Assembly (NCBI GenBank): GCA_963662665.2
Contig: CAXXJS010000010.1
Location: 128,001-192,000 of the forward strand
DNA from: Candidatus Latescibacterota bacterium
GTDB taxonomy: Bacteria; Latescibacterota; UBA2968; GCA-2709665
Direction: 5' to 3'
Length of the DNA stretch: 64,000 nt
In this document: positions 23,228 through 42,339 of the stretch, piece by piece
Numbering within the stretch: position 1 is the stretch's first letter
Layout: each line of letters opens with the position of its first letter
Made by a program: the position numbers and the translations under genes
Notes under the pieces: generated by a model
What the model was told of the DNA's origin: nothing
Databases searched by the model: none
Seen by the model: the letters and a program-made list of their open reading frames with translations, nothing else

Positions 23228-23959
23228 ATGACAAGACTCCAGGGTAAGGTCGCGCTGGTAACCGGCGGAAACCAGGGCATCGGAAAGGGCATCGCGCGGG
23301 CGCTGGCGAAAGAAGGCGCGGATCTTGTGATGACCGCCAGAACAATCGATAAGCTCGAATCTGCGGCGGAAGAGATCAGATCGGAGGGCGTGGAGGCGCT
23401 GGTCGCACCCGCCGACGTCACCGACGAATCGCAGGTGGAGGCCGTGTTTACCCAAACGATGGAACGGTTCGGGAGGGTGGATATTCTGGTCAACAACGCG
23501 GCGGCATTCGACGGGGGACCTATCGACGAACTTTCAGCATCCGCCTGGGATTGGGCAATGGCCGTAAATCTGCGCGGTCCCTTTTTGTGCACGCGGGCGG
23601 CGTTTCGCATTATGAAAAAACAGGGCGGTGGTCGGATCATCAATATAGGCAGCATTTCCGCTCAGCGGGTTCGTCCAGGTTCCGCTCCGTACAGCACGAG
23701 CAAATTCGGCATCACGGGCCTGACCCATGCCACGGCGCTGGACGGCCGGAACCACGGGATCGTCTGCTCCTGCCTGCACCCCGGCAATACCCTGGTGGAA
23801 CGTCGTGACGAATCCGACGCGCCAACGGACGATGAACCCATGATGACGGTGGATGAGCTGGCCCAGGCTGCGGTGACAATGGCCACGCTGCCGCTCCACG
23901 TCAACATGCTTGAGGCAATCGTTTTGCCCGTGGGGCAGTTGTACGTTGGGAGAGGGTGA
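23228..23959 (+). CDS. Short-chain dehydrogenase/reductase
   Basis: TGGNQGIG, NNAA, YSTSK (YxxxK). Confidence 0.95.
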   Translation: MTRLQGKVALVTGGNQGIGKGIARALAKEGADLVMTARTIDKLESAAEEIRSEGVEALVAPADVTDESQVEAVFTQTMERFGRVDILVNNAAAFDGGPIDELSASAWDWAMAVNLRGPFLCTRAAFRIMKKQGGGRIINIGSISAQRVRPGSAPYSTSKFGITGLTHATALDGRNHGIVCSCLHPGNTLVERRDESDAPTDDEPMMTVDELAQAAVTMATLPLHVNMLEAIVLPVGQLYVGRG

Positions 23960-24124
23960 ACGGATACCGGTTTATTTTCGGCCATACCCGGATCCGGGAC
24001 CGGGTTCAGGCCAAAGACGTCCACGGGAATGAAAGGCGGCTTTACAGGGGCGGAAGATACGATCGCAAGGCCCGCATCGCAGATACTCAGGATTGACGGG
24101 TTTCTTTCTGCTTTCCGGATCTTA

Positions 24125-24287
24125 GAAGCTGTCTTAAAACCCCCAATGGTCTTCGCGCGGCTGCAAAAGCGCCGGTCGGCGTTGGTCAAATCCACCCTTA
24201 TCTTTAAGATAGGGGCGGATTTTCCCGCCTTGACCACCACTTTTTCGCTCGCGCTCGGGAACTCACCGGTAGTTTCAAAACAGCTTC
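24125..24287. mobile_element. MITE-like element family C (163 bp)
   Basis: Terminal IR GAAGCTGTCTTAAAAC / GTTTCAAAACAGCTTC (14/16), with internal hairpin 24188-24222. Confidence 0.55.
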
Positions 24288-24344
24288 CTATCCTGCCCAT
24301 CCTGTTCATCCAGGTGTTTGAATTAATTCAGATTTGGAATTTTC

Positions 24345-24373
24345 TTGACACCCGCGATATGATTGTTTAATGT
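24345..24373 (+). promoter_or_regulatory. Sigma70-type promoter of the aromatic supercluster
   Basis: TTGACA-N17-TAATGT. Confidence 0.7.
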
Positions 24374-24456
24374 TAAACGGTTCCTATTGCCGTTCGGCGT
24401 AAAGAGGCGTCTAAACGAAAACGGCTGGAACCTGGATCATGAGAGGAACGGAAGCG

Positions 24457-24561
24457 ATGGATCTCGGTCGGAACAGGTTTTCCCGGCGTGGATATTTTTA
24501 TCGCTCCTACCGGTGGTATTACCGGGAGGCTGCGGAACGTCATGTCTGCCCACGCGAGTAA
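24457..24561 (+). CDS. Aromatic-amino-acid leader peptide MDLGRNRFSRRGYFYRSYRWYYREAAERHVCPRE
   Basis: Translated by hand; purine-rich GAGAGGAACGGAAG upstream (alternative in-frame ATG 24439); YFYRSYRWYY control run; lies between promoter and terminator. Confidence 0.8.
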   Translation: MDLGRNRFSRRGYFYRSYRWYYREAAERHVCPRE

Positions 24562-24586
24562 ACCGTTGACAGAATCGGGAAATGCG

Positions 24587-24615
24587 CCGTGGGCATCTGC
24601 TCACGGTTTTTTTTT
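24587..24615 (+). terminator. Attenuator terminator upstream of trpE
   Basis: CCGTGGGC-ATCT-GCTCACGG followed by T9; its 5' arm can alternatively pair with TGCCCACG at 24547-24554. Confidence 0.88.
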
Positions 24616-24629
24616 ATCCATTCGAAACC

Positions 24630-24740
24630 TTAACAGTCCGTTGATATAGTCGCTCTGCAGGCGAGGTGAGGTGTCCCGTCCCGGAAATATGTCACCATTC
24701 ATCCGCCGATTCATCCCGGATGGACGTTCTCAACGGACTG
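24630..24740. mobile_element. MITE family A copy (reverse orientation, different interior)
   Basis: CAGTCCGTTGATATAGTCGCTCTGCAGGCGAGG...CCGGATGGACGTTCTCAACGGACTG closely matches the reverse complement of the 20365 copy ends. Confidence 0.75.
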
Positions 24741-24856
24741 TTTGACCGTGATGCGATAGGGCGCCGGTCCTGGCCGGCTGGCTAGCAACCGCTCGTCCGG
24801 CGCAATGGAAAGCCGATTTCTGTTTGACGACTCCTGAAAATATCTTTGGCAGCCAG

Positions 24857-26347
24857 ATGAAACGCTTGAACACCCCCGATTTTAAAACTTTGAAACCGCT
24901 GGCCGAAGGCCGAGGCCTGGTCCCGATTTCCAGGGAAATCCTGGGAGATACGGAAACCCCGGTATCGGCCTACCTTAAACTCCGGCAGAGGAGTCCCTAC
25001 AGCTTTTTGTTTGAGAGCGTGGAGGGCGGAGAGAATATCGGGCGTTATTCTTTCCTGGGAGTGGAACCGTTTCTTGCGTTCAGGTCGTGGAAATCCAGGA
25101 TAGAGGTGGAGGATCTGAATCTGGGCGAGGTTCGTGTATATGAAGGGTCGCCAATTGCCGAACTCAGGCGTCTGCTGAAAAAATACCGATCAGCGCAATT
25201 GGAGGGACTTCCCAGATTTACCGGAGGGGCTGTGGGCTACGTGGGCTACGACGCAATCCGGCTGGTTGAGAATATTCCGGACAGCACGCGGGATGACCGC
25301 GGGCTACCTGACGTCGTATTGCTTTTCTACGATACGCTTCTTGGCTTCGACAACGTCCGGCAAAAGATCCATCTGATTTCAAACGTGCATACATCCGGGG
25401 ATATTGAAGAGAATTACCGGGAAGCGGAGGCGCGAATCGATGTTCTGGAACGGAACCTGCGCGGGCCGATTCCCGCGAACGGCGTTACTGAACGTGCGCC
25501 CCCACGAGGCGCGCGCGCGATCCGGTCGAACACGGAGCGGTCCGAATTCCTGGAAAAGGTGCGGCGATGCAAGGAATATATCGTGGCGGGCGATATCTTT
25601 CAGGTCGTACTTTCCCAGCGTTTCGAGACCGATATAACCGTAGGGTCACTGGACATCTACCGCGCGCTTCGCACGGTGAATCCGTCTCCATACATGTTCC
25701 ATCTGAACCTGAAAGAACTCCAGCTTATCGGCGCGTCGCCGGAACTACTGGTCAGGGTCGAGAATGGCGTCGTACAAGTGCGGCCAATTGCGGGCACCCG
25801 GTGGCGGGGGGCTACGGACGCGGAGGATTCCGCACTCGAGGCGGATTTGCTGGCAGACGAAAAAGAACGTGCCGAACACATTATGCTTCTAGACCTGGGC
25901 CGGAACGACGTGGGGCGGGTATCCCGTTACGATACGGTCCGGGTAACGGAACAGATGACGATCGAGCGTTATTCTCATGTGATGCATATTGTGTCCAATG
26001 TTCAAGGGTATCTTAAAGACGGCGTGGATGCCCTGGATGCGCTTTACGCCTGTTATCCGGCAGGTACGGTTTCCGGCGCGCCAAAAATCCGCGCCATGGA
26101 AATTATCGACGAACTTGAACCCACACGCCGTGGACCGTACTCGGGTGCGGTTGGCTATATCGACTTTTCGGGCAATATGGACACCTGCATTGCCATTCGT
26201 ACGATGGTATTGCAAGGCAGCAAAGCCTACGTCCAGGCCGGTGGAGGAATTGTATTCGATTCCGTGCCGGAGAACGAGCACCAGGAAACTGTGAATAAAG
26301 CAAGGGCGTTGTTTAAAGCCGTGGAATTGGCGGAAGGTGCTCTCTAG
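24857..26347 (+). CDS. trpE: Anthranilate synthase component I
   Basis: FLFESVEG..GRYSF, GDIFQVVLSQR, NPSPYMF, KERAEH.ML.DLGRND, PAGTVSGAPK. Confidence 0.97.
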   Translation: MKRLNTPDFKTLKPLAEGRGLVPISREILGDTETPVSAYLKLRQRSPYSFLFESVEGGENIGRYSFLGVEPFLAFRSWKSRIEVEDLNLGEVRVYEGSPIAELRRLLKKYRSAQLEGLPRFTGGAVGYVGYDAIRLVENIPDSTRDDRGLPDVVLLFYDTLLGFDNVRQKIHLISNVHTSGDIEENYREAEARIDVLERNLRGPIPANGVTERAPPRGARAIRSNTERSEFLEKVRRCKEYIVAGDIFQVVLSQRFETDITVGSLDIYRALRTVNPSPYMFHLNLKELQLIGASPELLVRVENGVVQVRPIAGTRWRGATDAEDSALEADLLADEKERAEHIMLLDLGRNDVGRVSRYDTVRVTEQMTIERYSHVMHIVSNVQGYLKDGVDALDALYACYPAGTVSGAPKIRAMEIIDELEPTRRGPYSGAVGYIDFSGNMDTCIAIRTMVLQGSKAYVQAGGGIVFDSVPENEHQETVNKARALFKAVELAEGAL

Positions 26348-26435
26348 TGTCCTGTCCCAGAACGCTAGTTGCCAGATGAAAATGCCCATTCGGGCATTAT
26401 GATGCCATCCTTCAACGATCACGTTCAATTGACCT

Positions 26436-26999
26436 ATGATTCTGGTAATCGACAATTACGATTCGTTCACTTACAATCTGGTTCAGTACCTGGGCGAGTT
26501 GGGTGCTCGGATGGACGTGTTTCGAAACGATCAGATCGAATTGGACAGGGTCGACGCGTCGGAACCGGATAAGGTGGTAATTTCGCCTGGGCCGTGTACG
26601 CCGAACGAAGCAGGAATCTCCGTGGAATTGATCCGGAGGTTTACCGGGCAGATTCCAATGCTGGGTGTCTGTCTGGGGCATCAGTGCATCGGACAGGCCT
26701 TCGGCGGCGCCATCGTAAGGGCTCCGGCCATACTCCATGGGAAGGTATCCGAGATCTATCACGACGGACGTACGATTTTCAGTGATTTGCCACAGCCCTT
26801 CGTTGCGACGCGATACCATTCCCTGATGGTCGAACGCGAGAGCCTGCCGGACTGTCTCGAGGTGTCCGCGCAGACAGATGACGGCATTATCATGGGACTG
26901 CGGCATCGGAAATATCCGGTTGAGGGGGTGCAGTTTCATCCGGAGTCGATCCTGACGGCAGCGGGCAAATTGCTATTGAGGAACTTTCTGGAGGGATAA
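26436..26999 (+). CDS. trpG: Anthranilate synthase component II (glutamine amidotransferase)
   Basis: [28 protein letters not shown]. Confidence 0.96.
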
Positions 27000-27054
27000 A
27001 TCCGGGAAGAGGAAAGCTGGCCCGGTTCTCTGTTTGAAAGTTGGGGAGACGGCT

Positions 27055-28074
27055 ATGGCGATACAGGATACGATTGGAAGGCTGATTGAGGGTCGGGATC
27101 TGCCGCGTCACGAGATGACAGCAGTGATGAACCAGATCATGTCGGGTGATGCGACGGACGCGCAGATCGGCGCGTTTCTGGTGGCTCTGCGTGTCAAGGG
27201 GGAAACCGTTGAGGAGATCGCGGGCGCCGCCGGGGTGATGCGTGAGAAGGCGACCCGGGTCGTAACGCGACATGCCACGGTGGTTGATACCTGCGGCACG
27301 GGAGGCGATGGGTCCGGAACGTTCAATATATCGACGGCGGCGGCCTTTGTGGCGGCTGGCGCGGGGCTGTGCGTGGCCAAACATGGGAACCGTGCGGCGT
27401 CCAGCCTGTGTGGCAGTGCGGATGTTTTGAAGGAACTGGGAGTAAATATCGAAGCATCGCCCGAGACGGTGGTGCGGTGCCTGGATGAGTTGGGCATCGG
27501 GTTTCTGTTTGCTCCGGCTTTGCACGGCGCTATGAAATATGCGATCGGACCGAGACGCGAGGTCGGCGTGCGCACGGTTTTCAACGCTCTGGGGCCGCTG
27601 ACCAATCCTGCAGGCGCAACCCGGCACCTGATAGGGGTATATGGTCAATCGCTGACCGACACGCTGGCCGAGGTGTTGCGTACATTGGAATCGGAGCGGG
27701 CGTTTGTGGTACACGGGCTGGACGGACTGGACGAGATCACCACAACCGGACCAACGCGGGTGAGCGAGTTGAAAGACGGAACCGTGTCCACGTATCAAGT
27801 TACGCCCGAAGACATGGGCATCGCGAGGGCTTCGGCCGGCGATCTGGCAGGAGGCAACGCGGAGACCAACGCCGCGATCCTGCGCAGGGTGCTGCATGGT
27901 GAGCCCGGTCCGCGGCTGGACATTGTCCTGTTGAACGCTGCGGCCGCCATTGTAGCGGGAGGCGCCGCAAACGATCTGACGTCCGGTATGGAACTGGCCA
28001 GGGAGACCGTGGATTCGGGGCGTGCCATGGACAAACTGGAAAAATTGAAACTCGTCTCGGGAGAGGGCGATTGA
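27055..28074 (+). CDS. trpD: Anthranilate phosphoribosyltransferase
   Basis: DTCGTGGD..TFNIST, KHGNR, GLDE. Confidence 0.98.
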   Translation: MAIQDTIGRLIEGRDLPRHEMTAVMNQIMSGDATDAQIGAFLVALRVKGETVEEIAGAAGVMREKATRVVTRHATVVDTCGTGGDGSGTFNISTAAAFVAAGAGLCVAKHGNRAASSLCGSADVLKELGVNIEASPETVVRCLDELGIGFLFAPALHGAMKYAIGPRREVGVRTVFNALGPLTNPAGATRHLIGVYGQSLTDTLAEVLRTLESERAFVVHGLDGLDEITTTGPTRVSELKDGTVSTYQVTPEDMGIARASAGDLAGGNAETNAAILRRVLHGEPGPRLDIVLLNAAAAIVAGGAANDLTSGMELARETVDSGRAMDKLEKLKLVSGEGD

Positions 28075-28161
28075 TATCGGGCGATTTCGCCGGTCACGCC
28101 CTGAACGTACCCCTTGAACGAGATGGCCGGAGTTCTTCCGGCGTTAACAAAGACGAGAAGC

Positions 28162-28953
28162 ATGGCTACGATTCTGGATGAGATTATAGCATATAAACGG
28201 CGTGTCGTGGCCGAGGCAAAAAAAAAGATCTCACCCGAGGAGTTACAGACGCGGTCGGACCTGGCCCGTGACCCGGACTCGTTTCTGGACAGCCTGACAG
28301 CCGCGGAGGATATCGCGCTCATAGCCGAAATCAAAAAGGCATCTCCGTCAAAAGGAGTGATCAGAGATGATTTCGATCCCGTGGAAATCGGCCGGGCTTA
28401 CGAGGTGAACGGCGCGTCGGCGATTTCGGTGCTGACGGACGTGAAGTATTTCCAGGGCTCCAATGCCAGTCTGAAGGCAGTAAGCGAAGCCGTGGAATTG
28501 CCGCTGCTCCGAAAGGATTTCGTGGTTGATCCTTATCAGATTCATGAAGCCAGATCAATCGGAGCGTCTGCCGTACTGCTCATTGTATCGGCGCTCTCGC
28601 ACCGTAAACTGGCAGGGCTGCTCGCCGATTGCAGGGAGTCGAAATTGGGCGCACTCGTGGAAGTGCATACCAGAGACGAAGCGAAGATGGCGCTTGACGC
28701 GGGAGCGGAACTTGTGGGGGTGAATAACCGCGACTTGAGGACCTTTACAACAGACCTGCAGACCACTTTCGACCTGATCGAACACCTGCCGGAAGACCTG
28801 GTAATTGTAAGCGAGAGTGGTATCGAGACCAGAGACCACGTGGTCCGATTGAGGGATGCCGGCGTGGATGCGGTACTGGTCGGGGAACATCTGATGCGAC
28901 ACCCCGACGTCGGCCGGAAGCTTCGAATGCTGTTGGGAAAGGAAGGCGGCTGA
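28162..28953 (+). CDS. trpC: Indole-3-glycerol phosphate synthase
   Basis: IAEIKKASPSKG, LRKDF, GVNNRDL, SESGI. Confidence 0.98.
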   Translation: MATILDEIIAYKRRVVAEAKKKISPEELQTRSDLARDPDSFLDSLTAAEDIALIAEIKKASPSKGVIRDDFDPVEIGRAYEVNGASAISVLTDVKYFQGSNASLKAVSEAVELPLLRKDFVVDPYQIHEARSIGASAVLLIVSALSHRKLAGLLADCRESKLGALVEVHTRDEAKMALDAGAELVGVNNRDLRTFTTDLQTTFDLIEHLPEDLVIVSESGIETRDHVVRLRDAGVDAVLVGEHLMRHPDVGRKLRMLLGKEGG

Positions 28954-28961
28954 TTCAACCC

Positions 28962-29582
28962 ATGGTTCGGGTGAAGATCTGTGGCATCACGAATCCGGAG
29001 GATGCGCTCTTTGCGGCAGCACAGGGCGCGGACGCCCTGGGGTTCATATTTTATGAGCCCAGCCCGCGTTACGTGCATCCGGACCGTGTGGGCGAAATTG
29101 TGTCGGAGTTGCCGCCGTTCGTGATGCCCGTAGGGGTTTTCGTGAACGAGGCCAGGGAAGAAATCCTGAGTATCGTGCGGTCGACGGGAATCCGGGCGGT
29201 CCAGTTGCACGGCGACGAGACGCCGGCCGATTGTCTGGGATATCCGTTTCCGGTTATCCGGGCATTGCGGGTCGGCGACGGATTCGACCCTGCGTCCCTG
29301 AGTCACTATGCGGTAAACGCGTTTCTGCTGGATACGGCCAAAAAGGGATTGTACGGCGGCACCGGAGAGACATTTGACTGGCGGGTCGCCAGGGCGGCCT
29401 CGGCCCACGGTCGGATCATTCTGTCTGGAGGGATCGATCCGAAAAACGTGGCGGAAGCGGTCCGAATGGTGAATCCGTATGCCGTGGACTGCGGCAGCGG
29501 CGTTGAGGCCGCGCCTGGCAGGAAGGACCACAACAGAATCGCTGAATTCTTCGGGGCACTCTGCTTTGCAAACGTGAGATAG
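28962..29582 (+). CDS. trpF: Phosphoribosylanthranilate isomerase
   Basis: VKICGIT, QLHGDE, GGTGETFDW. Confidence 0.97.
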   Translation: MVRVKICGITNPEDALFAAAQGADALGFIFYEPSPRYVHPDRVGEIVSELPPFVMPVGVFVNEAREEILSIVRSTGIRAVQLHGDETPADCLGYPFPVIRALRVGDGFDPASLSHYAVNAFLLDTAKKGLYGGTGETFDWRVARAASAHGRIILSGGIDPKNVAEAVRMVNPYAVDCGSGVEAAPGRKDHNRIAEFFGALCFANVR

Positions 29583-29650
29583 ATTGCAGAAATCTGCGGC
29601 AATCAGCGAATTTTCGCTACATCAATCGAATCGATCCGGAGCCAAACATA

Positions 29651-30913
29651 GTGGACATATTGAAAGATCTGAACTTCCAGGGATATGTTTTTCAGGTAAC
29701 GGACGCCAACGGACTCAAGGCGTTGCTCGCCCGTGGACCGGTTTCGCTCTATTCCGGATTCGACCCCACGGCGGACAGCCTTCACGTCGGCAACCTGATA
29801 CCCATTCTGGGACTGCGGCGGTTTCAGTTGGCCGGACACCATGCAATCGGCCTCATCGGGGGAGGAACCGGCCTGATTGGCGATCCGAGCGGCAGCAAGG
29901 AGGAACGCAGTCTGAATCCACCCGACGTGATCGCGGCATATACGGAGAAACTGACTGAACAGCTGACAAGGTTCCTGGATTTCGAAACGGCAACCAATCC
30001 CGCGCAGGTAGTCAGCAATATGGGCTGGCTTTCCGAACTCAAGGCGATCGACTTCCTGAGGGACACGGGCAAGCATTTCTCAATGGGCTATATGCTGGCG
30101 AAAGAGTCCGTGGCTTCCCGGCTGGATTCCGGAATATCGTTCACCGAATTCAGCTATATGGTCATTCAGGCATACGATTTTATGGAGTTGTTTCGGACGC
30201 GCGGATGCAAGCTGCAAATTGGCGGGAGCGATCAATGGGGTAATATCACGGCGGGAATCGAGCTGATCCGTCGTCGACTGGGCGGGCAGGCTTACGGGCT
30301 GACGTTTCCACTGTTGGAGAAAGCCGACGGGTCCAAGTTCGGCAAGACGGCATCCGGTACCGTCTGGCTGGACGCGAGACGAACAACGCCCTATCAGTTC
30401 TATCAGCACTGGATTAATTCGGATGACCGGGACGTCGTGAAGTTTCTGAAGCTGTTTACGTTTCTCCCGGAGGGTGCGATTCGAAATCTGGAAATGGAGG
30501 TGGAACAACATCCGGAGAGGCGCGAAGCGCAGCGGGTGTTGGCCGAGGAGGTGACCACGTTCGTACACGACAGGTCCGCCACCGGCAGGGCGCGGCGGAT
30601 TTCCGAGGCCCTGTTTTATGGGGACCTGCGAAATCTGAGTGCGCAAGAGATAGAGGAAGGGTTCAGCGACGTGCCATCTCATTCGCTCAACGGCATTCCG
30701 GGAGTGGGCCTGGTGAATCTACTGGTAGACGTCCGCATTTCAACTTCCATGCGCCAGGCGCGGGAAGACATCAGATCCGGCGCGATTCATGTCAATGGCC
30801 GGCGTTGCACCGATATGGGCCGGATCCTTGAACCCTCAGACAGACTCGCCGGAAAATACCTGATCGTTCGCCGGGGCAAACGCCGCTACTTTCTGGTGCA
30901 CTGGAACAGTTGA
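29651..30913 (+). CDS. tyrS: Tyrosine--tRNA ligase
   Basis: GFDPTADSLHVGN, QIGGSDQWGNI, KFGKT, C-terminal S4 domain RRGKR. Confidence 0.98.
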   Translation: MDILKDLNFQGYVFQVTDANGLKALLARGPVSLYSGFDPTADSLHVGNLIPILGLRRFQLAGHHAIGLIGGGTGLIGDPSGSKEERSLNPPDVIAAYTEKLTEQLTRFLDFETATNPAQVVSNMGWLSELKAIDFLRDTGKHFSMGYMLAKESVASRLDSGISFTEFSYMVIQAYDFMELFRTRGCKLQIGGSDQWGNITAGIELIRRRLGGQAYGLTFPLLEKADGSKFGKTASGTVWLDARRTTPYQFYQHWINSDDRDVVKFLKLFTFLPEGAIRNLEMEVEQHPERREAQRVLAEEVTTFVHDRSATGRARRISEALFYGDLRNLSAQEIEEGFSDVPSHSLNGIPGVGLVNLLVDVRISTSMRQAREDIRSGAIHVNGRRCTDMGRILEPSDRLAGKYLIVRRGKRRYFLVHWNS

Positions 30914-31003
30914 CGGGCGGGTGTGCGGCCGCTTACGGGTATCGGAATGCAAATCAGGACACGCGGGACTCAGCTGGAAAACCAAGAGAGAGGATTCCTT
31001 ATC

Positions 31004-31981
31004 ATGAAAGCACCCTGGATTACGTATCGGCCGGAACTCAAGGTACTGGACTGTACAATTCGAGACGGCGGATTGATGAATGACCATCATTTCGCAGATG
31101 ATTTCGTGAAGGCCGTTTACGAAACCTGCGTTGAAGCAGGGGTCGACTATATGGAAATCGGGTACCGAAACTCCAAGAAATTGTTTCCCACGGGGAAATT
31201 CGGGGCCTTCCGACACAGCGACGAAGAAGATATCCGCAAGATAACGGGCGATCACGACCCTGAAACCACCGGCCTGAAGCTCGCGATTATGGCCGATGCC
31301 GGCAAGAGCGATTGGGCAGAAGACATCCTGCCGGCCAGCGAGAGCGTGGTTAGCATGGTACGCGTAGCCTGCTATGTCGAGCAGATCCCTGAAACCGTTG
31401 AAATGCTCTGCGACGCCCATGAGAAAGGCTATGAAACCAGTTGTAACATTATGGCCATATCGACGGTGCAGGAGGTTGAAATCGATCAGGCGCTCGACGT
31501 CCTGATACAGACGCCGGTTGGAACAATATGCGTTGTAGACAGTTTCGGCGCGCTGTACCGTGAACAGGTGGATATGCTCATTCGGAAATATATGGAAGCC
31601 GTCAGTGGAACGGGCAAGGAAGTGGGCATTCACGCGCACAACAACCAGCAACTGGCGTTCGCCAATACCCTGGAAGCGCTCATTCTGGGCGCCAACCGCG
31701 TTGATGCCACGGTGGACGGACTTGGACGGGGCGCGGGTAATTGCCCGCTTGAACTGCTGCTCGGTTTTCTGCGCAATCCCAAGTTCAAGATTCGACCCGT
31801 CTACAAGCTGCTGGAAGACCATTTTGTCAAATTGCGCGGTGAATTGACGTGGGGGGCCCTCGTTCCTTACAACATTACGGGCCAGCACAACCAGCATCCC
31901 CGCTCGGCAATGGCGCTCCTGGACGGTGACGACCGCAATCGCTATCTGGCGTTCTACGATCAGGTTATGCGGGATATCTAG
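31004..31981 (+). CDS. DRE-TIM metallolyase, 4-hydroxy-2-oxovalerate aldolase-like
   Basis: [32 protein letters not shown]. Confidence 0.85.
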
Positions 31982-32014
31982 CAGACCGGATGGACTTTTT
32001 CAACGGACTGCTAG
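31978..32014. repeat. MITE family A minimal copy
   Basis: CTAG-CAGACCGGATGGACTTTTTCAACGGACTG-CTAG; the left CTAG contains the aldolase stop codon. Confidence 0.7.
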
Positions 32015-32055
32015 CTCGATACGCCTGGCCACCACATCTGAACGGAATGGAAACG

Positions 32056-33267
32056 ATGGCACGTCTCAAGGCAGATGGATCCAACCCGACCTGGCCCGAC
32101 TCCGCGGGGCATTTCGGACCCTACGGCGGGCGATATGTCCCGGAAACGCTGATGCCCTTGTTGGAGGACCTGGAGGCGGCCTACCGCAACGCGAAGGACC
32201 GCCGGGATTTTCGGGAGGAACTGGACCGTTATCTCAGTGAATTTGTGGGAAGGCCCACGCCACTCTATTTTGCACAGCGACTGACCGCCGAACTGGGCGG
32301 CGCCAGAATCTACCTGAAGCGGGAGGATCTCGCGCACACCGGCGCGCACAAAATCAACAATACGATGGGCCAGGTTCTGCTTGCCCGGCGGATGGGCAAG
32401 ACGCGCATCATTGCGGAAACGGGTGCAGGTCAGCACGGCGTCGCGACGGCAACCGTGGCGGCAATGTTCGGTATGGACTGCGAGGTTTATATGGGCACCG
32501 AAGACATGGACCGGCAGGCGTTGAACGTGTTTCGGATGCGGCTCCTGGGGGCAAAAGTGACGGGCGTGGATTCGGGAAGCAGGACTCTGAAAGATGCGAT
32601 CAATGAGGCCATCCGGGATTGGGTGACGAATGTAGAGGACACCTTTTATATTTTCGGATCCGTCCTGGGACCTCATCCTTATCCGATGATCGTGCGCGAT
32701 TTTCAGCGGGTAATCGGGGTGGAAACGCGCGAACAGATCCTTCAGGCCGAAGGCCGGCTACCGGACTGTCTGATTGCATGCGTAGGCGGCGGCAGCAATT
32801 CGATCGGGTTGTTTCACGCCTTTTTGGAGGACTCGAAGGTTCGGATGATTGGCGTCGAAGCCGGAGGCCATGGAATCGCCTCCGGCGACCATGCGGCGCG
32901 ATTCCAGGGCGGGGATCTGGGGGTGCTGCACGGAGCAAGGATTTACCTCCTGCAGGACGACGACGGGCAGATCGCGCTGACCCACTCGGTTTCCGCGGGC
33001 CTGGATTATTCGGGTGTCGGCCCCGAGCACTGTCTACTGCGGGATGCCGGCCGGATCGAGTATGTGTACGCAACGGACGACGAGGCTCTTAAGGCCTTTC
33101 AGTTGTTGAGTCGCACGGAGGGTATCATTCCCGCACTGGAAAGCGCGCACGCGATCGCTCATGTGTCCCGAACAGCGCCCGGAATGGGCAAGAATGCCGT
33201 AATCGTTGTGAATCTGTCCGGTCGCGGCGACAAAGACGTACAGCAGGCGGCTAAGTACCTGGACTAG
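32056..33267 (+). CDS. trpB: Tryptophan synthase beta chain
   Basis: [38 protein letters not shown]. Confidence 0.99.
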
Positions 33268-33314
33268 CGGCCCGTCTGGTTCACCGGATCGGATCGAAGC
33301 ACGGAGTTGACCTG

Positions 33315-34127
33315 ATGACAAGGATCGGGAAACGGTTCGAAGCGTTGAGGAAAGCCCGAAAGACCGGATTCGTCGCCTATATTACGGCGGGCGATCCGGA
33401 CCTGGCAACCACCCGGAAACTTGTGCCGGAACTGGAAAGGCGCGGGGTGGACATTCTGGAGTTGGGCGTGCCGTTCTCCGATCCACTGGCGGACGGGCCG
33501 GAGATCCAGCGGGCATCGCAACGGGCCCTGCGGCACCGGGTGTCCATCAGCGATGTACTGGATCTGGTGGCCGACCTGCGTCAGGAGACCGAGATACCGA
33601 TTGTGCTGTTTACGTATTTCAATCCGATGCACCGCTATGGTCTGAAGCGGTTGGTCGACCGGGCGGCCGAAGCGGGGGTGGACGGCATTCTGGCGCTGGA
33701 TCTTCCGCCCGAGGAAGCGGCAGACTACAAGGATCTGATGTCGGAACGGGGAATGGATACGATTTTTCTGATCGCGCCTACGAGCGGTGAGGAACGCATT
33801 CGACGGATCGCGTCTCACACCAGCGGATTTGTGTATTACGTGTCGCGCACGGGCGTAACCGGGGAACGGGACAGTCTGGAGGAAACGCTTGGAGACAGGG
33901 TGGCGGCCATCCGGCGACATACCTCTCAACCCGTAGCGGTGGGATTCGGAATTTCGACGCCCGAACAGTCCCGAGAGGTTGCAGGTTATGCGGATGCGGT
34001 CGTCGTTGGCAGCGCAATCGTGCGGCGTATTGCGGAGCGGCACGGAGATCCGGACCTCGTTTCGCACATCGGGGCATTTGTCGAAGAACTGGCGCAACCG
34101 CTTAAGGGAGCATCCGATGGATCTTGA
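33315..34127 (+). CDS. trpA: Tryptophan synthase alpha chain
   Basis: ELGVPFSDPLADGPEIQ, SRTGVTG, VGFGIS. Confidence 0.98.
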   Translation: MTRIGKRFEALRKARKTGFVAYITAGDPDLATTRKLVPELERRGVDILELGVPFSDPLADGPEIQRASQRALRHRVSISDVLDLVADLRQETEIPIVLFTYFNPMHRYGLKRLVDRAAEAGVDGILALDLPPEEAADYKDLMSERGMDTIFLIAPTSGEERIRRIASHTSGFVYYVSRTGVTGERDSLEETLGDRVAAIRRHTSQPVAVGFGISTPEQSREVAGYADAVVVGSAIVRRIAERHGDPDLVSHIGAFVEELAQPLKGASDGS

Positions 34128-34386
34128 CGACTGGAGGAAAGAAATCGACCTGCTGGACCAGAAACTTTTGGAGCTTCTGAATCGACGTGCCGGATGCGCC
34201 ATTGAAATTGGCAGGATTAAACGGGCAATTGAACAACCGATCTTCGTGCCGGAACGGGAGATGTCGATCCTGAACCGGATCCTTGAACTGAATATGGGGC
34301 CCATGGACGACGAGGCGGCGCGACGGATCTTTCAGCAGATTATCGATGAATCCAGGCGCCTCGCACAGGAAAACCACGAAAAATAA
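34117..34386 (+). CDS. Chorismate mutase (AroQ type, standalone)
   Basis: LDDWRKEID.LD..LLELLNRRA..IGRIK..PERE; AGGGAG RBS. Confidence 0.9.
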   Translation: MDLDDWRKEIDLLDQKLLELLNRRAGCAIEIGRIKRAIEQPIFVPEREMSILNRILELNMGPMDDEAARRIFQQIIDESRRLAQENHEK

Positions 34387-34479
34387 GCGGGGCGCGAAAC
34401 CTTATTGAATGCGTTCGTGAGCCCGGCTGAAACCGTTAACCGGATTGGCGGCCGCCCGAAAAACCGGAGGTGATGAACA

Positions 34480-35508
34480 ATGGCCTTTAATAAAAACGCA
34501 AGGCTGCCCACGCCGGAAACCGTACTGGAAAAGATGTCGCTGCCGAAAAGGCTGAAGAGGATAAAGGAGGAACGCGACGCCGAGATCAGGGAAATCTTCG
34601 AGCGGAGGAGCGATAAGTTCCTGCTGGTGATCGGCCCGTGTTCGGCGCACGATGAAGATGCCGTGTGCGAGTTCGTGTCCAGGTTGGCGAAACTCCAGGA
34701 GGCTGTCCGGGAAAGGCTGGTTCTGGTTCCCCGCATCTATACCAACAAACCGCGAACGACCGGCGAGGGGTACAAAGGCATGGGACATCAGCCGGACCCG
34801 CGGAAGGCGCCGGACATTTCCGAAGGCATCTATGCGGTCCGTCAGATGCACATCCGGGCGGTCGGGGAGTCCCACCTGACGGCTGCCGACGAAATGCTCT
34901 ACCCCGAAAACCTGCCGTACGTCGAGGATCTGCTGAGCTACATCGCCGTCGGCGCACGGTCCGTGGAGAATCAGCAACACCGATTGACCTGTAGCGGCGT
35001 TGACGTCCCCGTTGGGATGAAGAATCCGACGGGAGGAGATCTCTCGGTGATGTTGAACGCGATTCACGCCTCGCAGATACAACACGTCTTCATCTATAAC
35101 GGATGGGAGGTCAGCACCGGCGGCAATCCAATGACACACGCCGTGCTTCGCGGGGCCGTGGACGTTAACGGGCGAAGTATGCCGAACTATCATTTCGAGG
35201 ACCTTATGTACGCGGCGGCACTCTACGGTCAACGGCAGCTTGCCAATGCCACAGTCGTTGTGGATACGAATCACAACAATTCCGGCAAACAGTTCAGTGA
35301 ACAGCCCAGGATCGGGTTGGAGGTGATCCGCAGCCGGCGGAGTTCAGCGATATTGAACGACATGATCCGAGGGTTGATGGTAGAGAGTTATCTCGTTGAG
35401 GGTGCTCAGAACGTTAATGAAGGCGTGTTCGGCAAATCCATTACAGATCCTTGTCTGGGGTGGAAGGAGTCCGAGGCGTTTGTCAAAGAACTGGCTGATG
35501 GAATTTGA
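34480..35508 (+). CDS. aroG: DAHP synthase class I-alpha
   Basis: IGPCSAH, KPRT..GYKG, GARS, GMKN, HxN, G.SITDPC. Confidence 0.93.
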   Translation: MAFNKNARLPTPETVLEKMSLPKRLKRIKEERDAEIREIFERRSDKFLLVIGPCSAHDEDAVCEFVSRLAKLQEAVRERLVLVPRIYTNKPRTTGEGYKGMGHQPDPRKAPDISEGIYAVRQMHIRAVGESHLTAADEMLYPENLPYVEDLLSYIAVGARSVENQQHRLTCSGVDVPVGMKNPTGGDLSVMLNAIHASQIQHVFIYNGWEVSTGGNPMTHAVLRGAVDVNGRSMPNYHFEDLMYAAALYGQRQLANATVVVDTNHNNSGKQFSEQPRIGLEVIRSRRSSAILNDMIRGLMVESYLVEGAQNVNEGVFGKSITDPCLGWKESEAFVKELADGI

Positions 35509-35585
35509 AGTTGTTCGGGTCAGGAATCCTGCGGCGTCCGGAATGTCATTTAAACGCTTTTGCCAGCTCTTCCGAGGATGACGGT

Positions 35586-36698
35586 ATGGCCAATGATCCT
35601 CCGTTTTCGGGTGAGACGATTGCCATTGTAGGTGTCGGTTTGATCGGCGGATCTCTTGGCGTGGCGCTCAAGGGACTGGGCATCGGGCGAAGTATCGTCG
35701 GCATCAGCAGGCAGGAGACGCTGGATGCGGCCGAGGGGTTGAATGTAATCGACACGGGCTACCGCTATGACGACCTCGAAAGGGGGATTGCCGAGGCGGC
35801 GCTGGTTTTCCTGTGTACTCCCATCGTACGTATTCTGGACCTGCTGCCAGGGGTGCTGGGGGCGGCGCGAAAAGGTGCGGTTGTGACCGACGTGGGCAGC
35901 ACAAAACACGCGATCGTTTCCACGGCGTCGGCCCACAAACGGGATGGCGTGTACTTTGTAGGCGGGCACCCGATGGCCGGGTCCGAACACCGCGGTGTGA
36001 GCGCGGCGGATCCGTTTCTGTTTCAGAACGCGATCTACGTATTGACGCCGTCGCCGGACACACCCGATTTCGTGGTCGAAAAGCTCGCAAACCTTGCAAA
36101 GGCGCTTGGAGCGAGACCCATGAGGATGGCGCCTGGGGAACACGACAGGGCGGCTGCGGCGGTGAGTCACCTGCCGCAGATGATGGCTACAAGCCTGGTT
36201 TCCATGATCGGGCGCATGACCGAGGCCGAAGGGTTGCCTATAAGGATGGCGGCGGGCGGGTTTCGGGATCTGACGCGCATTGCATCCAGCCCGTTTGAAA
36301 TGTGGCGGGATATCTGCCATACGAACGCGGATCCGATCCGTGAGATGATCGATCTGTATATCGAATCGCTCACAGCGATGCGCGGTGCAGTGGACCACGA
36401 CCGTCTCGAGCAGGCATTTGCCTATGCGAATCGCGTTCGCGGGCAGATTCCGACGGATTCCAAGGGGTTTCTGCACCCTTTGTTCGAAATTCTCCTGGTG
36501 GCGGAAGACAGGCCGGGCGTGATTGCCGACGTCGCCCTGACCCTGGCCGGGGATAACATAAACATCAACGATATCGAGGTGTTGAACGTTCGGGAGGGCG
36601 AAGGCGGCACCATCCGGATGGGGTTCGATTCACGGCCTTGCGCGGAACAGGCCGTCGACGTCCTGGAGAAGGCAGGATACAGCGTCAGGCTGAGATAG
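35586..36698 (+). CDS. tyrA: Prephenate/arogenate dehydrogenase with C-terminal ACT domain
   Basis: GVGLIGGS, DVGSTK, GGHPMAGSE, SHLPQ, GFRDLTRIA; ACT-like EDRPGVIA. Confidence 0.95.
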   Translation: MANDPPFSGETIAIVGVGLIGGSLGVALKGLGIGRSIVGISRQETLDAAEGLNVIDTGYRYDDLERGIAEAALVFLCTPIVRILDLLPGVLGAARKGAVVTDVGSTKHAIVSTASAHKRDGVYFVGGHPMAGSEHRGVSAADPFLFQNAIYVLTPSPDTPDFVVEKLANLAKALGARPMRMAPGEHDRAAAAVSHLPQMMATSLVSMIGRMTEAEGLPIRMAAGGFRDLTRIASSPFEMWRDICHTNADPIREMIDLYIESLTAMRGAVDHDRLEQAFAYANRVRGQIPTDSKGFLHPLFEILLVAEDRPGVIADVALTLAGDNININDIEVLNVREGEGGTIRMGFDSRPCAEQAVDVLEKAGYSVRLR

Positions 36699-36770
36699 TC
36701 GGAAGGATCAGGAACCGAAAAGAGATCGCCGTCCGTCCTTTTGCAGCTCAATTTTGAAGAAGGCGTGGCT

Positions 36771-38078
36771 TTGAAATTCGCTGCTTCCGAAATTTCCCGG
36801 AGCACGAACAGTCCTTCACCGGGGCTTGTGGGGGCGTGCGACCTCCCCGGCGATGCCAGCATATCCATTATGGCTCTTGTACTGTCGTCCGCCGCCGACG
36901 GCATCTCACGGATTCACAGATGTTCCCGGAGACGCGAAGTCGAGCGGACCGGAGAGTTGCTGGCGGATCTCGGTATTCCGGTGGCGTGGGTCGGCGAGAC
37001 CGCAACGGTTACCGGCGGCCACTTCACGGCGACGGACGACAGACTCCACGTGGGCGGGTCCCTTGTTCTGTTTTCCTGTCTCGCGGGATTGCTGTCGAAT
37101 GCGCCTTTTGTGACCAGACTCTCAGGGGTCCGAACGGATGCCCGCATCGACGGGCTTTTCAACGCACTCACCGCGTTGGGCGCACCCCTGGACATTCCGC
37201 CTGAAGAACGGACGTCGGCATGTTTCGGAGGCGGAAAGTTAACGCCCGGATCCTTCCGTGTGGGACTTCCGGATATTGCGGTGAAGTGTGGAATACTTTT
37301 GGCCGGGCTGGGTGTGGACGGGCCGGTTGAACTGCTGCAGGACACTGGTGGGGACGACAACCTGGAAGTGCTGCTGCAGGCAGCAGGATGCGAGCTGAAA
37401 AAGAGCCGGATGAAGGGCGCCCCGGGTCATCGATTGTTACTGGAAGGACCGGTACGGCTCCGTGGCGTTGCGCATGAATTGCCGGGCTGCCCGGACGCGG
37501 GGCTGTTTCTGGCTCTGGCTGCGGCCATGTTGAAACGGTCTGAGTTGACAGTAACCCATTTTGGAATGGATTCGAGAAGCCGCAGGATCGTTGACATATT
37601 ACGCCGTATGAACGTCTCAATGGAAATAGAGCAATGCAGGACGGAATCCGGTTTCCCCGTTCGACGGGCTCGGATCAGGGGGTCCGAACTGCGTGGCATA
37701 AAAGTTGCGGGCGCGCATGCCAGACGCCTCCTGGACGTGCTCCCACTCCTGGCGGTCGCGGGTGCGGTTTCGAGGGGCGAAACGATCATACGGGATGCCG
37801 GGGCGTTGAGAGACGGACCGGTAGACTGCATTTCTGTACTGGTGAAAAACCTCAGGAAAATGCAGATTCAGGTCGGGGAGATACAGGATGGGCTGGTTGT
37901 GAAAGGCGGGCAATTGCAAGGCGCCGAACTGGATGCAGCCGGCGACGTCCGTGTGTCTATGGCACTCTCGCTGGCGGCGCTGTCGAGCGAAGGAGAAACC
38001 GTTATAATGAACCCGGGGGCCGTGGACCGGATTTTTCCGGGTATCACAAATCGACTCGCTGCGTTATTGGAGTCGTAA
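36771..38078 (+). CDS. EPSP synthase (AroA)-fold protein lacking most catalytic residues
   Basis: Full-length AroA-like layout (PGDASIS, VKC.ILLAGL, GET.I.DAG.LR, GD.R..MA, FPG) but key residues substituted. Confidence 0.8.
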   Translation: MKFAASEISRSTNSPSPGLVGACDLPGDASISIMALVLSSAADGISRIHRCSRRREVERTGELLADLGIPVAWVGETATVTGGHFTATDDRLHVGGSLVLFSCLAGLLSNAPFVTRLSGVRTDARIDGLFNALTALGAPLDIPPEERTSACFGGGKLTPGSFRVGLPDIAVKCGILLAGLGVDGPVELLQDTGGDDNLEVLLQAAGCELKKSRMKGAPGHRLLLEGPVRLRGVAHELPGCPDAGLFLALAAAMLKRSELTVTHFGMDSRSRRIVDILRRMNVSMEIEQCRTESGFPVRRARIRGSELRGIKVAGAHARRLLDVLPLLAVAGAVSRGETIIRDAGALRDGPVDCISVLVKNLRKMQIQVGEIQDGLVVKGGQLQGAELDAAGDVRVSMALSLAALSSEGETVIMNPGAVDRIFPGITNRLAALLES

Positions 38079-38164
38079 ATCGATTGGATGATTCTGTTGC
38101 CCGCCGCGTAAGGCAGCGGCCGCCTGAGACAGTGCGGGTCAATCATCGGAACGAGGAGAGTCTT

Positions 38165-38305
38165 ATGAGACTGGTTGTCAGGTTGTTCCTTCTGGCGTTG
38201 CTCGTGTTCTTCGGAGGCGTGATTTTCATTCGGTATACCTACAATTGTTCCTGGAAGGAGAGTTTTGCAATTGCCGACCAGTTTGTGTCGGATCTGACCC
38301 GTTAA
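38165..38305 (+). CDS. Small membrane protein (46 aa)
   Basis: GAGGAG RBS; single TM MRLVVRLFLLALLVFFGGVIFI. Confidence 0.6.
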   Translation: MRLVVRLFLLALLVFFGGVIFIRYTYNCSWKESFAIADQFVSDLTR

Positions 38306-38338
38306 CAGTCCTTTGATAAAGTCGCTCTGCAGGCGAGG
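38302..38338. repeat. MITE family A, single end
   Basis: TTAA-CAGTCCTTTGATAAAGTCGCTCTGCAGGCGAGG; overlaps the small-ORF stop codon. Confidence 0.7.
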
Positions 38339-38364
38339 CGCTGAACAGGTTATGGGAGTCTGTT

Positions 38365-39231: not shown

Positions 39232-39232
39232 C

Positions 39233-39952: not shown

Positions 39953-40081
39953 AAACGACAAAAGAAGCGCGCCGCTCGGCGCGGGCCGGGAGGGGGGTAC
40001 GATGTGGTCCTCTACGCCTCTCCGATTCAAGCTGACAGCTGATGGCTTTGTCTGAGGGATACGGGGGAGAGATCGTCCTTT

Positions 40082-41785: not shown

Positions 41786-42339
41786 GTCAGACCGCGCATT
41801 CTTCTCCGTTGCGGGGCAGGCAGATATTTCTGACCGGGTTCATGGCGACCGGCAAGAGCAAGATCGGGCCAATTCTGGCTGTCCGCCTGGGTCGGATATT
41901 CGTCGATACGGATGCGTTGATCGAGAACGCGGCCGGAAAGTCGATACCCCGGATCTTCGCTGAAGACGGAGAACCCGCCTTCCGTCGTATCGAGCACAGT
42001 TGCGTGGTGCGGGCGGCCGGGATGCGGGAGGCCGTGATTGCTCTGGGCGGCGGCGCGGTCACGCACGAGATGAACTGGGATACGATTCGCGCATCCGGTG
42101 TGTGCCTGTGCCTGAGGGCTTCGCCGGCGACCATCTTCGCGCGCCTGCGCAGGACAGAGGGCGAACGGCCGCTGATGGCCGGATTGAACGACGAAGACCG
42201 GATGGAAAAGATCCGGTCGATGCTGGCCGCCCGGGCCCCGTTTTACGACCGAGCGGATGCATTCGTGGAGTCGACGGAGCGCCGCACGCCGGAAGAGACC
42301 GTTGAACTGGCAGTATCGGCATTGAAATCCTTGAACTGA
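41782..42339 (+). CDS. aroK: Shikimate kinase
   Basis: GFMATGKS, DTD, GE.AFR, GGG, RPL; GTG start overlaps argS stop. Confidence 0.95.
   Translation: MSQTAHSSPLRGRQIFLTGFMATGKSKIGPILAVRLGRIFVDTDALIENAAGKSIPRIFAEDGEPAFRRIEHSCVVRAAGMREAVIALGGGAVTHEMNWDTIRASGVCLCLRASPATIFARLRRTEGERPLMAGLNDEDRMEKIRSMLAARAPFYDRADAFVESTERRTPEETVELAVSALKSLN

Follow-up and report, generated by a model that had tools for sequence, protein, structure and literature searches.

This analysis concerns a candidate leader-peptide attenuator that lies in front of the tryptophan biosynthetic gene trpE in Candidatus Latescibacterota bacterium. The window, by which we mean the whole stretch of DNA that was analyzed, covers 64,000 nucleotides (nt) of contig CAXXJS010000010.1 (assembly GCA_963662665.2, positions 128,001 to 192,000 of the forward strand), and coordinates given below are those of the window. 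An earlier account of this DNA, made from the letters alone and referred to here as the sequence-only reading, had proposed that a single leader integrates all three aromatic amino acids, weighted toward Tyr, ahead of a large cluster of aromatic biosynthesis genes. The leader is composed of the following elements, in which regions 1 to 4 are the RNA segments that would pair as 1:2, 2:3, or 3:4.

24345-24373, + strand: promoter P1, read from the sequence, with a -35 element TTGACA at 24345-24350, a 17-nt spacer, and a -10 element TAATGT at 24368-24373.
24380-24431, + strand: 5' stem-loop of the leader transcript, GUUCC...GGAAC, from the RNAalifold consensus of 15 leaders of the genus.
24441-24448, + strand: Shine-Dalgarno-like sequence GAGAGGAA, 8-9 nt upstream of the ATG.
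24457-24561, + strand: leader open reading frame (ORF) of 34 codons, MDLGRNRFSRRGYFYRSYRWYYREAAERHVCPRE, from ATG at 24457 to TAA at 24559-24561, from the sequence and the genus alignment.
24476-24491, + strand: region 1, GGUUUUCCCGGCGUGG, the partner of region 2 (RNAalifold 1:2 helix, columns 105-120 with 179-193).
24493-24522, + strand: control run YFYRSYRWYY, in which 7 of 10 codons are aromatic (5 Tyr, 1 Phe, 1 Trp).
24505-24528, + strand: inner hairpin CCUACCGGUG..UACCGGGAGG within the control run (RNAalifold columns 135-158), retained in 13-15 of 15 sequences.
24547-24564, + strand: region 2, which includes the stop codon; its 5' part UGCCCACG pairs with region 3 (the antiterminator) and its 3' part CCACGCGAGUAAACC with region 1.
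24586-24615, + strand: intrinsic terminator, regions 3 and 4, CCGUGGGC AUCU GCUCACGG followed by U9.

The primary features described by the sequence-only reading are all found in the DNA. The promoter TTGACA-N17-TAATGT and the ORF with its seven aromatic codons in ten are present at the positions listed, and the terminator with its T9 tract was also recovered by a terminator pattern scan. The two complementarities put forward as the basis of the pairing scheme are likewise exact, with TGCCCACG (24547-24554) matching CGTGGGCA (24588-24595) to give the eight perfect pairs of the antiterminator, and GCGTGG (24486-24491) matching CCACGC (24550-24555). As DNA, the terminator arms read CCGTGGGC-ATCT-GCTCACGG and then T9, which the pattern scan resolves into nine pairs, six of them G-C; within 23900-42000 this is by far the strongest candidate on the + strand. 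The promoter stretch CTTGACA...TTTAATGTTA is common to all 15 sequences of the genus, and we infer that the transcript from P1 starts at approximately 24381. The leader holds in its sequence the constituents of a leader-peptide attenuator, namely a putative Shine-Dalgarno sequence and start codon, an ORF with a run of relevant codons, an antiterminator, and a terminator that precedes the first structural gene.

The combination of an aromatic run and a terminator is not due to chance. Among the 159,338 stop-to-stop frames of the whole 4.86-Mb genome, only 7 contain at least seven aromatic codons in ten. Frames with at least six in ten number 110, and only 2 of these 110 have a strict terminator within 110 nt downstream, the leader ORF being one. 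The other, on contig C8, was the sole further candidate for an aromatic leader in the genome; it begins where one gene has already ended, precedes a MazEF-like pair, and was rejected.

The leader was compared among relatives of increasing distance. The window's order comprises families f1 and f2, whilst f3 and f4 are sister families of the same class. The order is represented by 53 genomes, with TrpE in 53 of 53, and the leader was looked at in 42 of these (those left out of the leader count are G025, G027, G028, G031, G032, G033, G036, G039, G046, G049, and G051). Each of the 14 other genomes of the genus has a match to the leader DNA, at 74-85%, in every case ahead of trpE and with 15-250 nt between terminator and gene. 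A comparison of the regions upstream of trpE had been suggested as a check by the sequence-only reading, and it bears the proposal out: the aromatic run, the terminator, and the 2:3 pairing are kept at this position in every genome compared from the genus (15 of 15) and the order (42 of 42), and in 19 of 20 from the sister families. Promoter, aromatic-rich ORF of roughly 25-35 codons, and the terminator arm CCG[T/C]GG[G/A]C are present in all of 27 further upstream regions from 10 other genera, and VTFAAYNSFFWRYFWYYRYYRQAQERCMPTL and MNAFATYFWYFWRRFDGRYYYYRRPSKSVVCPAC are examples of the order's leaders; the ORF of two g10 genomes ends 21 nt sooner. In f3 and f4 the 19 cases of ORF plus terminator were found by algorithm, and the remaining locus (L142) has an ORF and a hairpin with an interrupted T run; taken over all leaders, the terminator was found algorithmically in 61 of 62. 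Elsewhere in the phylum, four families of other classes have leaders such as ..FGWRRWYWRSQ.., and in three others none was found. At trpE loci of other phyla, none of 74 usable cases has a Tyr/Phe-dominated leader, and six have a WWW-type leader.

Within the genus the leader frame spans 36 codons and is free of insertions and deletions in 15 of 15 sequences. The 14 relatives have GGAGGA 6-7 nt upstream of a GTG start codon. This GTG is GCG in the window, where the next codon, ACG in the relatives, has become ATG, and a start codon is therefore retained one codon downstream. The variable columns of the alignment are spread over the three codon positions as 14/15/19, so strong purifying selection does not act on the entire peptide, and residue identity varies freely at codons 3-10 and 26-30. 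Among the 90 codons that the 15 genomes have at the six core positions (Y, F, Y, Y, Y, Y), there are six synonymous TAT/TAC changes, three Tyr-to-Phe changes, and no change to a non-aromatic residue. The three Tyr-to-Phe changes fall in three separate codons of three separate genomes; since Phe is only one of six single-base sense replacements of TAT/TAC, chance would seldom give three out of three (about 0.005). In the consensus structure codons 14-16 form no pairs, and base pairing thus does not explain their conservation as Tyr or Phe. Of the two Trp positions, one is missing from 2 and the other from 5 of the 15 genomes, though no genome lacks both; the Trp codon of 24493-24522 is the one replaced in 5, and the upstream Phe codon is lost in 6. 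Even so, none of the 42 leaders of the order is without a Trp codon or without a Phe codon.

The RNAalifold consensus of the 15 genus leaders contains a long 1:2 helix, GGUUU..CC.GGCGUGG with CCACGC.GA.UAAAC, which encloses the control run and has the stop codon inside it, and the same helix occurs in the unconstrained minimum-energy fold of the window leader. In family f4 the 1:2 helix uses the Trp codons themselves. The terminator has undergone compensatory changes across 56 leaders, with columns 106/127 being T-A in 40 and C-G in 13, columns 103/130 C-G in 44, T-A in 8, and T-G in 4, and columns 109/124 G-C in 47 and A-T in 8. The partners of the 2:3 pairing also change together, being UGCCC:GGGCA in f1-f3 versus UGCGUCC:GGACGCA in f4. 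The full wording is UGCCCACG:CGUGGGCA in the window's genus, UAUGCCCAC:GUGGGCAUA in genus g3, GUUUGUCC:GGGCAAAC in genus g6, and (GA/GG)UGCGUCC:GGACGCA(UC)/GGGCGCA(CC) in f4. In g6, AAAC sits in the terminator loop and is therefore free of the terminator's own constraint. A 2:3 helix of at least 7 bp is found in 49 of 61 leaders, compared with 32% of shuffled windows, and in most leaders the segment that pairs with region 3 finishes 4-10 nt short of the last base of the stop codon. The 5' stem-loop at 24380-24431 (columns 4-10/51-57), which stands outside this four-region scheme, has two pairs that survive two-sided changes within the genus.

Folding of the window leader by equilibrium methods gives -21.2 kcal/mol for the 2:3 hairpin and -15.5 kcal/mol for the 3:4 terminator. 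When no ribosome is present, the minimum-energy structure combines 1:2 with 3:4. A 30-nt ribosome footprint placed on the stop codon, or at any position from codon 27 onward, yields the terminator, and the RNA lying 3' of a stalled ribosome adopts the antiterminator for stalls at F8, Y13, W20, Y21, and Y22, which are 5 of the 8 aromatic positions tested. Being equilibrium calculations, these constrained folds are a consistency check only.

The leader precedes a group of genes that run in the same direction, as follows.

24866-26347, + strand: trpE, the first structural gene, with a TTG start at 24866 placed by homology with relatives (Pfam Chorismate_bind and Anth_synt_I_N).
26436-29582, + strand: trpG, trpD, trpC, and trpF (Pfam).
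29651-30913, + strand: tyrS, the sole tyrS match in the genome (TIGR00234, 386 bits).
30923-34127, + strand: an HMGL-like aldolase-type gene, trpB, and trpA (Pfam/NCBIfam).
34117-38078, + strand: chorismate mutase, DAHP synthase (34480), a prephenate dehydrogenase with an ACT domain (tyrA), and aroA (Pfam/NCBIfam).

Neighboring genes between trpE and aroA are never more than 93 nt apart, and a pattern scan between 24615 and 38078 found no strong + strand terminator; a single 13-gene transcript over this stretch is therefore plausible. The genes aroE, ubiE, and argS lie 287 nt past aroA.

The gene order was compared in 20 representatives. All 10 representatives of the order have trpEGDCF-tyrS-...-trpBA-chorismate mutase-DAHP synthase-tyrA-(aroA)-aroE-ubiE-argS, except that L153 (g6) has no cluster gene past DAHP synthase in the stretch compared. 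The eight representatives of f4 instead have trpEGDC-trpS-chorismate mutase-tyrA-aroA-aroE-argS (8 of 8), the chorismate mutase being below cut-off in one of them. The control codons of the leaders differ in parallel. Residues were counted over the last 30 codons, as the start codons of some leaders had been placed too far upstream, and the outcome for the three larger samples is given here.

Family f1, 22 leaders: median Tyr/Phe/Trp of 5/2/2; Tyr exceeds Trp in 22; WW in 0; YY in 21.
Family f2, 20 leaders: median Tyr/Phe/Trp of 4/3/2; Tyr exceeds Trp in 20; WW in 0; YY in 17.
Family f4, 16 leaders: median Tyr/Phe/Trp of 1/1/3; Trp exceeds Tyr in 14; WW in 15; YY in 1.

For f1 and f2 combined, Tyr exceeds Trp in 42 of 42 leaders, with no WW and with YY in 38. 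The two genera of f3 differ in the same manner, as the leader of g13, which has tyrS in the operon, carries YYY and one W, and that of g12, which has no synthetase gene in the operon, carries WW. The codon content of these predicted leaders follows the synthetase gene of the operon, with tyrS going together with Tyr/Phe-rich and trpS with Trp-rich leaders. In the order genomes searched, tyrS is present once, as the operon copy, the exceptions being G034, where it lies elsewhere, and G041, where it was not found. The weighting toward Tyr, which the sequence-only reading had linked to the presence of tyrS in the cluster, is thus mirrored across relatives. A leader specific for Trp, on the other hand, is not what is found: the window leader has a single Trp codon, WW is absent from all 42 leaders of the order, and no Rfam family matches.

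The lineage also has leaders in front of synthetase genes that stand alone. Outside the window, this genome (G000) has directly upstream of its stand-alone trpS (TIGR00233, 309 bits) a promoter-like site, the leader MAARIDISGSWWWYDANRTGRLTAC with WWW, and a terminator (contig C32, 32791-32868; L186, about 292-369). A WW or WWW leader precedes trpS in 7 of 9 family f1 genomes compared and in 0 of 11 from f2, and none was found within 450 nt upstream of trpS in the genus at L189 and L191. For 14 of 23 genomes of family f4, a leader ORF containing two to six Tyr codons, followed by a terminator, lies ahead of the stand-alone tyrS (L207, L212-L221, L224, L226, and L227); of the remaining loci, three have one Tyr codon and six have no pair of ORF and terminator. 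Examples are MTTHRLRAYYRYYRSPGAFD, MTRTIAYRYYYYASGG, and MPVITPAFAYYRYRYYRDTYRGALL, with the runs AYYRYYR, AYRYYYY, and SYYYR. Judged from such sequences, the lineage uses cognate-codon leaders for its synthetase genes. No such family of Tyr-run tyrS attenuators is described in the literature searched. These tyrS attenuators carry a different terminator (GCCCCTG...) from that of the trpE leaders. The W-R codons TGGCG, region 2, and the terminator arms are, in contrast, common to the trpE leaders of the order and the Trp leaders of f4, and the Trp-only leaders of the lineage have the tandem Trp codons that the order's trpE leader is without. A crude genome scan for small ORFs with amino-acid runs followed by a terminator gave five matches. 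Apart from the leaders of trpE and trpS, none of these seems genuine, and the scan is silent on the presence of his, leu, thr, or phe leaders.

Taken together, these observations are best accounted for by a classical ribosome-mediated attenuator, built on the Trp-leader scaffold of related families, whose control codons have shifted from Trp to a set that is mainly Tyr, with Phe and one or two Trp codons. We hold this to be probable, with reasonable confidence. We infer that the amino acids sensed are mainly Tyr, probably Phe, and weakly Trp. The interpretation given by the sequence-only reading is supported, the leader-peptide attenuator and the Tyr weighting being backed by the relatives, with the caveat that the Trp component is weak, as the window run has one Trp codon and each Trp position is lost in some genomes. 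A leader retuned to Tyr matches the content of the operon, in which the trp genes are accompanied by the sole tyrS, the Tyr branch, and the common pathway.

In the proposed mechanism, transcription from P1 would start a leader RNA of about 235 nt. When Tyr-tRNA (and probably Phe-tRNA and, more weakly, Trp-tRNA) is well charged, the translating ribosome would reach the stop codon at 24559, which is inside region 2; region 2 would then be masked, the 3:4 terminator would form, and transcription would end near 24610-24615. A ribosome that stalls within 24493-24522 would instead cover region 1 or separate it from region 2, leaving region 2 to pair with region 3, and RNA polymerase would read on into trpEGDCF-tyrS-(aldolase-like gene)-trpBA and probably further to chorismate mutase, DAHP synthase, tyrA, and aroA. 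In the absence of translation, both 1:2 and 3:4 would be expected to form, again with termination as the outcome.

The origin of such a leader may be composite. According to this account, tyrS replaced trpS in an ancestral trp operon, the Trp leader took on the Tyr-run wording of a tyrS leader, and trpS departed from the operon with its own WWW leader, the result being a single OR gate that responds to a shortage of any of the three aromatic aminoacyl-tRNAs. The likeness of AYYRYYR in tyrS leaders to WYYRYYR, RWYYRE, and RYYYYRR in the order's trpE leaders, a short motif, suggests this origin. The account is tentative, and we would place it somewhat below an even chance of being correct.

A number of observations weigh against a retuned attenuator. 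Few evolutionary events underlie the association of codon content with synthetase gene, since the relatives are not independent, and in G034 (g6, L232) the leader keeps YYY even though the operon ends at trpE-trpG-trpD and tyrS and the other genes are elsewhere. The core of the 2:3 pairing, which is five or six pairs, is invariant within the order and hence uninformative there; the 2:3 duplex energies of single sequences are mostly unremarkable against shuffles (z from -2.4 to +1.1), and exchange of the 2:3 partners among genera discriminates only f1-f3 from f4. The shuffle and partner-swap duplex tests are weak in G+C-rich sequence, and the position-anchored comparison of 2:3 was relied on in their place. 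The 1:2 helix in the form seen in the genus was not recovered in g6, for which RNAalifold gives another long-range helix. The whole-leader fold is no more stable than shuffles (z = -0.84), which is no argument either way. The free RNA beyond ribosomes stalled at F14, Y15, and Y18 has the terminator as its minimum-energy fold, so that switching by ribosome position, as claimed by the sequence-only reading, is reproduced in these folds for the stop codon and for five of the eight aromatic positions but not for these three. Part of trpE transcription may also bypass the attenuator, because the terminator and trpE are separated by 250 nt that include a repeat and a promoter-like site at 24622-24650, and eight genera have a second box there. 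Finally, aroR of Corynebacterium glutamicum, a leader with Phe and Tyr codons, responds to Phe and not to Tyr according to a review (PMC11802643), and the presence of a codon is thus no proof that its amino acid is sensed.

The gap between terminator and trpE has several further features. The TTG start of trpE at 24866 is 250 nt past the terminator rather than adjoining it, in comparison to 15 nt in two genomes of the genus and about 25 nt in genus g6. Part of the gap in the window is taken up by a repeat that does not belong to the attenuator.

24634-24740, no strand assigned: dispersed repeat, with 85 full or partial matches in the genome and many copies of 90-97% identity in all genomes of the genus.

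The repeat is about 85-107 nt in length, has 11-nt inverted ends CAGTCCGTTGA / TCAACGGACTG, and is inserted between terminator and trpE; the promoter-like site at 24622-24650 overlaps its start. The second promoter-like box of the eight other genera (CTTGACAAAT, about 17 nt, TATTAT) lies between attenuator and trpE (L021-L029, L035, L040, and L043-L046), with a conserved palindrome, ..CTTATCTTGATAGAATTCTTACAGTTA.., after it; the box is degenerate in the window at about 24823-24850 and absent in g6. This palindrome between terminator and trpE may be a repressor operator.

Within the operon itself, the chorismate mutase gene (34117-34387, 89 codons) overlaps the end of trpA by 11 nt and occupies what appears as a 353-nt gap before the DAHP synthase gene. 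The HMGL-like gene (30923-31981), found between tyrS and trpB, resembles 4-hydroxy-2-oxovalerate aldolase, although below family cut-offs; it occurs only in genera g1, g6, and g10 and, at 81-89% identity between the two families, is much better conserved than TrpE (about 70%). The tyrS slot of the operon holds two types of tyrosyl-tRNA synthetase (TyrRS) that are 28-33% identical, both scoring as the TIGR00234 equivalog (L149, L151, and L159 versus the window), which looks like in-place gene displacement among genera of one family.

Other explanations of the leader differ in what they take to be the signal. The nearest retains the attenuator mechanism but makes it effectively Tyr-only, in control of the sole tyrS, with the Phe and Trp codons as relics of an ancestral Trp leader. 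Such a leader would be expected to have Tyr codons that are dominant and best conserved, as is the case, and to tolerate the loss of Trp positions (in 2 and 5 of 15 genomes) and of the upstream Phe (6 of 15); the stand-alone tyrS leaders of f4 are similarly worded as well, with AYYRYYR against WYYRYYR in g4, and in the aroR case, as reported in a review, the presence of a codon did not predict the response (PMC11802643). Yet each of the 42 order leaders has kept at least one Trp and at least one Phe codon, the sole non-synonymous change of core Tyr codons is to Phe (3 of 3), suggesting that Phe is acceptable as a control codon, and G034 retains the run with no tyrS behind the leader. Five trp genes also head the operon, for which some input from Trp would be expected, and we regard a Tyr-only leader as unlikely. 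In a different proposal the aromatic-rich nascent chain itself, as in TnaC, would halt the ribosome when free aromatic amino acids are sensed, and the codon supply would not be the signal. Tyr-to-Phe changes would keep the chemistry of such a peptide, and Arg and aromatic residues do alternate in the run, but the wording of the run varies widely among genera (YFYRSYRWYY, FFWRYFWYYRYY, YFWYFWRRFDGRYYYY), where a fit to the exit tunnel would call for a fixed sequence. Arrest triggered by excess would, with this geometry, lead to induction by excess, which is the wrong sign for a biosynthetic operon; of all the alternatives this is the one to which we give the least credence.

The ORF could also be incidental to an RNA-only or protein-dependent switch, in which the leader binds a ligand, a tRNA, or a protein. 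The high nucleotide conservation of the run within the genus, and the location of part of it in a conserved inner hairpin, would fit such a switch. Across genera, however, the nucleotides of the run differ and it is the frame, the aromatic richness, and the position of the stop codon relative to region 2 that are kept; the start codon has been rescued in the window, and codons 14-16 are unpaired yet conserved as Tyr or Phe. Nor does the leader match any Rfam family, the T-box included. The whole 64-kb window has no Rfam match at gathering thresholds, and a search of 23900-25100 returned only LOOT and SorY at chance level (E about 10; none with E < 9). A T-box riboswitch was rejected, with no T-box match up to E = 10 in 23900-25100 and none at gathering thresholds in the window, and a switch that dispenses with the ORF appears highly improbable. 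Only slightly more credible is the idea that the unit from P1 to the terminator is a gene in its own right for a trans-acting small RNA, a peptide, or both, comparable to rnTrpL/peTrpL of Sinorhizobium, with trpE being transcribed from a separate downstream promoter. The unit has its own promoter and a strong terminator, eight genera have a second promoter-like box (CTTGACAAAT...TATTAT) and palindrome before trpE, the window has 250 nt and a promoter-like site past the terminator, and trans functions of trp attenuator RNA and peptide have been published. Against this, trpE begins 15 nt past the terminator in two genomes of the genus and about 25 nt past it in g6, with no room for a promoter, the unit is always found together with trpE, and the peptide is poorly conserved beyond the aromatic run and the RNA-constrained VCP codons. 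A role in trans would moreover add to attenuation and not substitute for it, and as a replacement for the retuned attenuator it is very unlikely.

The well-studied aromatic attenuators sense one amino acid, either Trp or Phe. The archetype is trpL of Escherichia coli, which precedes trpE and consists of a promoter, a short ORF, and mutually exclusive 1:2, 2:3, and 3:4 pairings, with the stop codon adjoining region 2; a summary is given in PMC11802643. The window leader has the same layout of promoter, ORF, and regions 1-4, the same placing of the stop by region 2, and the same position ahead of trpE. The f4 leaders are likewise similar to trpL, having WWWRFW, Trp codons inside region 1, and the shared scaffold. 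In contrast to trpL, the window leader has no tandem Trp and carries five Tyr, two Phe, and one Trp codon instead; its control run is just past region 1 rather than within it, and its operon adds tyrS and genes of the Tyr and common pathways. Multivalent attenuators are represented by thrL (Thr and Ile) and ilvL (Leu, Val, and Ile) of the enterobacteria, which resemble the window leader in that one leader has codons for several amino acids relevant to the operon. They differ in serving one branched pathway and biosynthetic genes only, whereas here an aromatic mix is combined with a synthetase gene.

In the literature searched, the closest case of mixed aromatic codons is the Phe-Tyr-Phe leader aroR before aroF of C. 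glutamicum, which is reported to act by ribosome stalling (Neshat et al. 2014, as cited in the review PMC11802643). It shares with the window leader the presence of mixed aromatic codons before a gene of the aromatic pathway (aroF, DAHP synthase), but this resemblance is functional only: aroR has three control codons, no Trp, and a place before aroF rather than trpE, and its sequence and lineage are unrelated. In the window the leader precedes trpE, and the DAHP synthase gene is about 10 kb downstream at 34480. For synthetase genes, two papers describe the pheM-pheST attenuator of E. coli and predicted trpS and leuS attenuators of Streptomyces (PMC11802643, PMC1262725). The WWW leaders of trpS and the Tyr leaders of tyrS in f4 are similar to pheM in that a cognate-codon leader stands over a synthetase gene; the operon in the window differs in that the synthetase gene is embedded in the biosynthetic operon of another amino acid and the shared leader has the cognate codons of the synthetase. 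In the Firmicutes, tyrS is under T-box control, with direct binding of tRNA and a response to the charging of tRNA-Tyr (PMC1262725); the window leader differs in having no T-box match. The aromatic supraoperon of Bacillus subtilis also has trp genes nested among aro and tyr genes, but is controlled by the protein TRAP. A leader that is Tyr-dominated or holds codons for all three aromatic amino acids was not encountered in the literature searched, including the accessible part of a genome-wide attenuator survey (PMC2965389), though further attenuation surveys may hold such predictions. The statement of the sequence-only reading that no tri-aromatic attenuator has been characterized is in agreement with this, aroR being the nearest approach (PMC11802643).

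The proposed mechanism of the leader is of a known kind, that of trpL, pheL, and thrL, and its new part is the Tyr-dominated set of codons for three aromatic amino acids. The locus suggests that Tyr-sensing leader peptides exist at all. For the organism, it would put under one leader a 13-gene, likely co-transcribed operon in which Trp synthesis and the sole TyrRS gene are combined with the Tyr branch and the initial step of the shikimate pathway, and this raises the question of why a shortage of Tyr should induce the synthesis of Trp. Among the relatives, the Trp-rich leaders of operons with trpS and the Tyr-rich leaders of operons with tyrS, together with the separate trpS and tyrS leaders, provide a handle on how attenuator specificity evolves. 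If the composite origin is true, a single attenuator would govern Trp production and the one TyrRS gene along with the Tyr branch and the entry to the shikimate pathway, and the leader would be the first tri-aromatic attenuator and part of a natural series in which specificity has been reprogrammed codon by codon.

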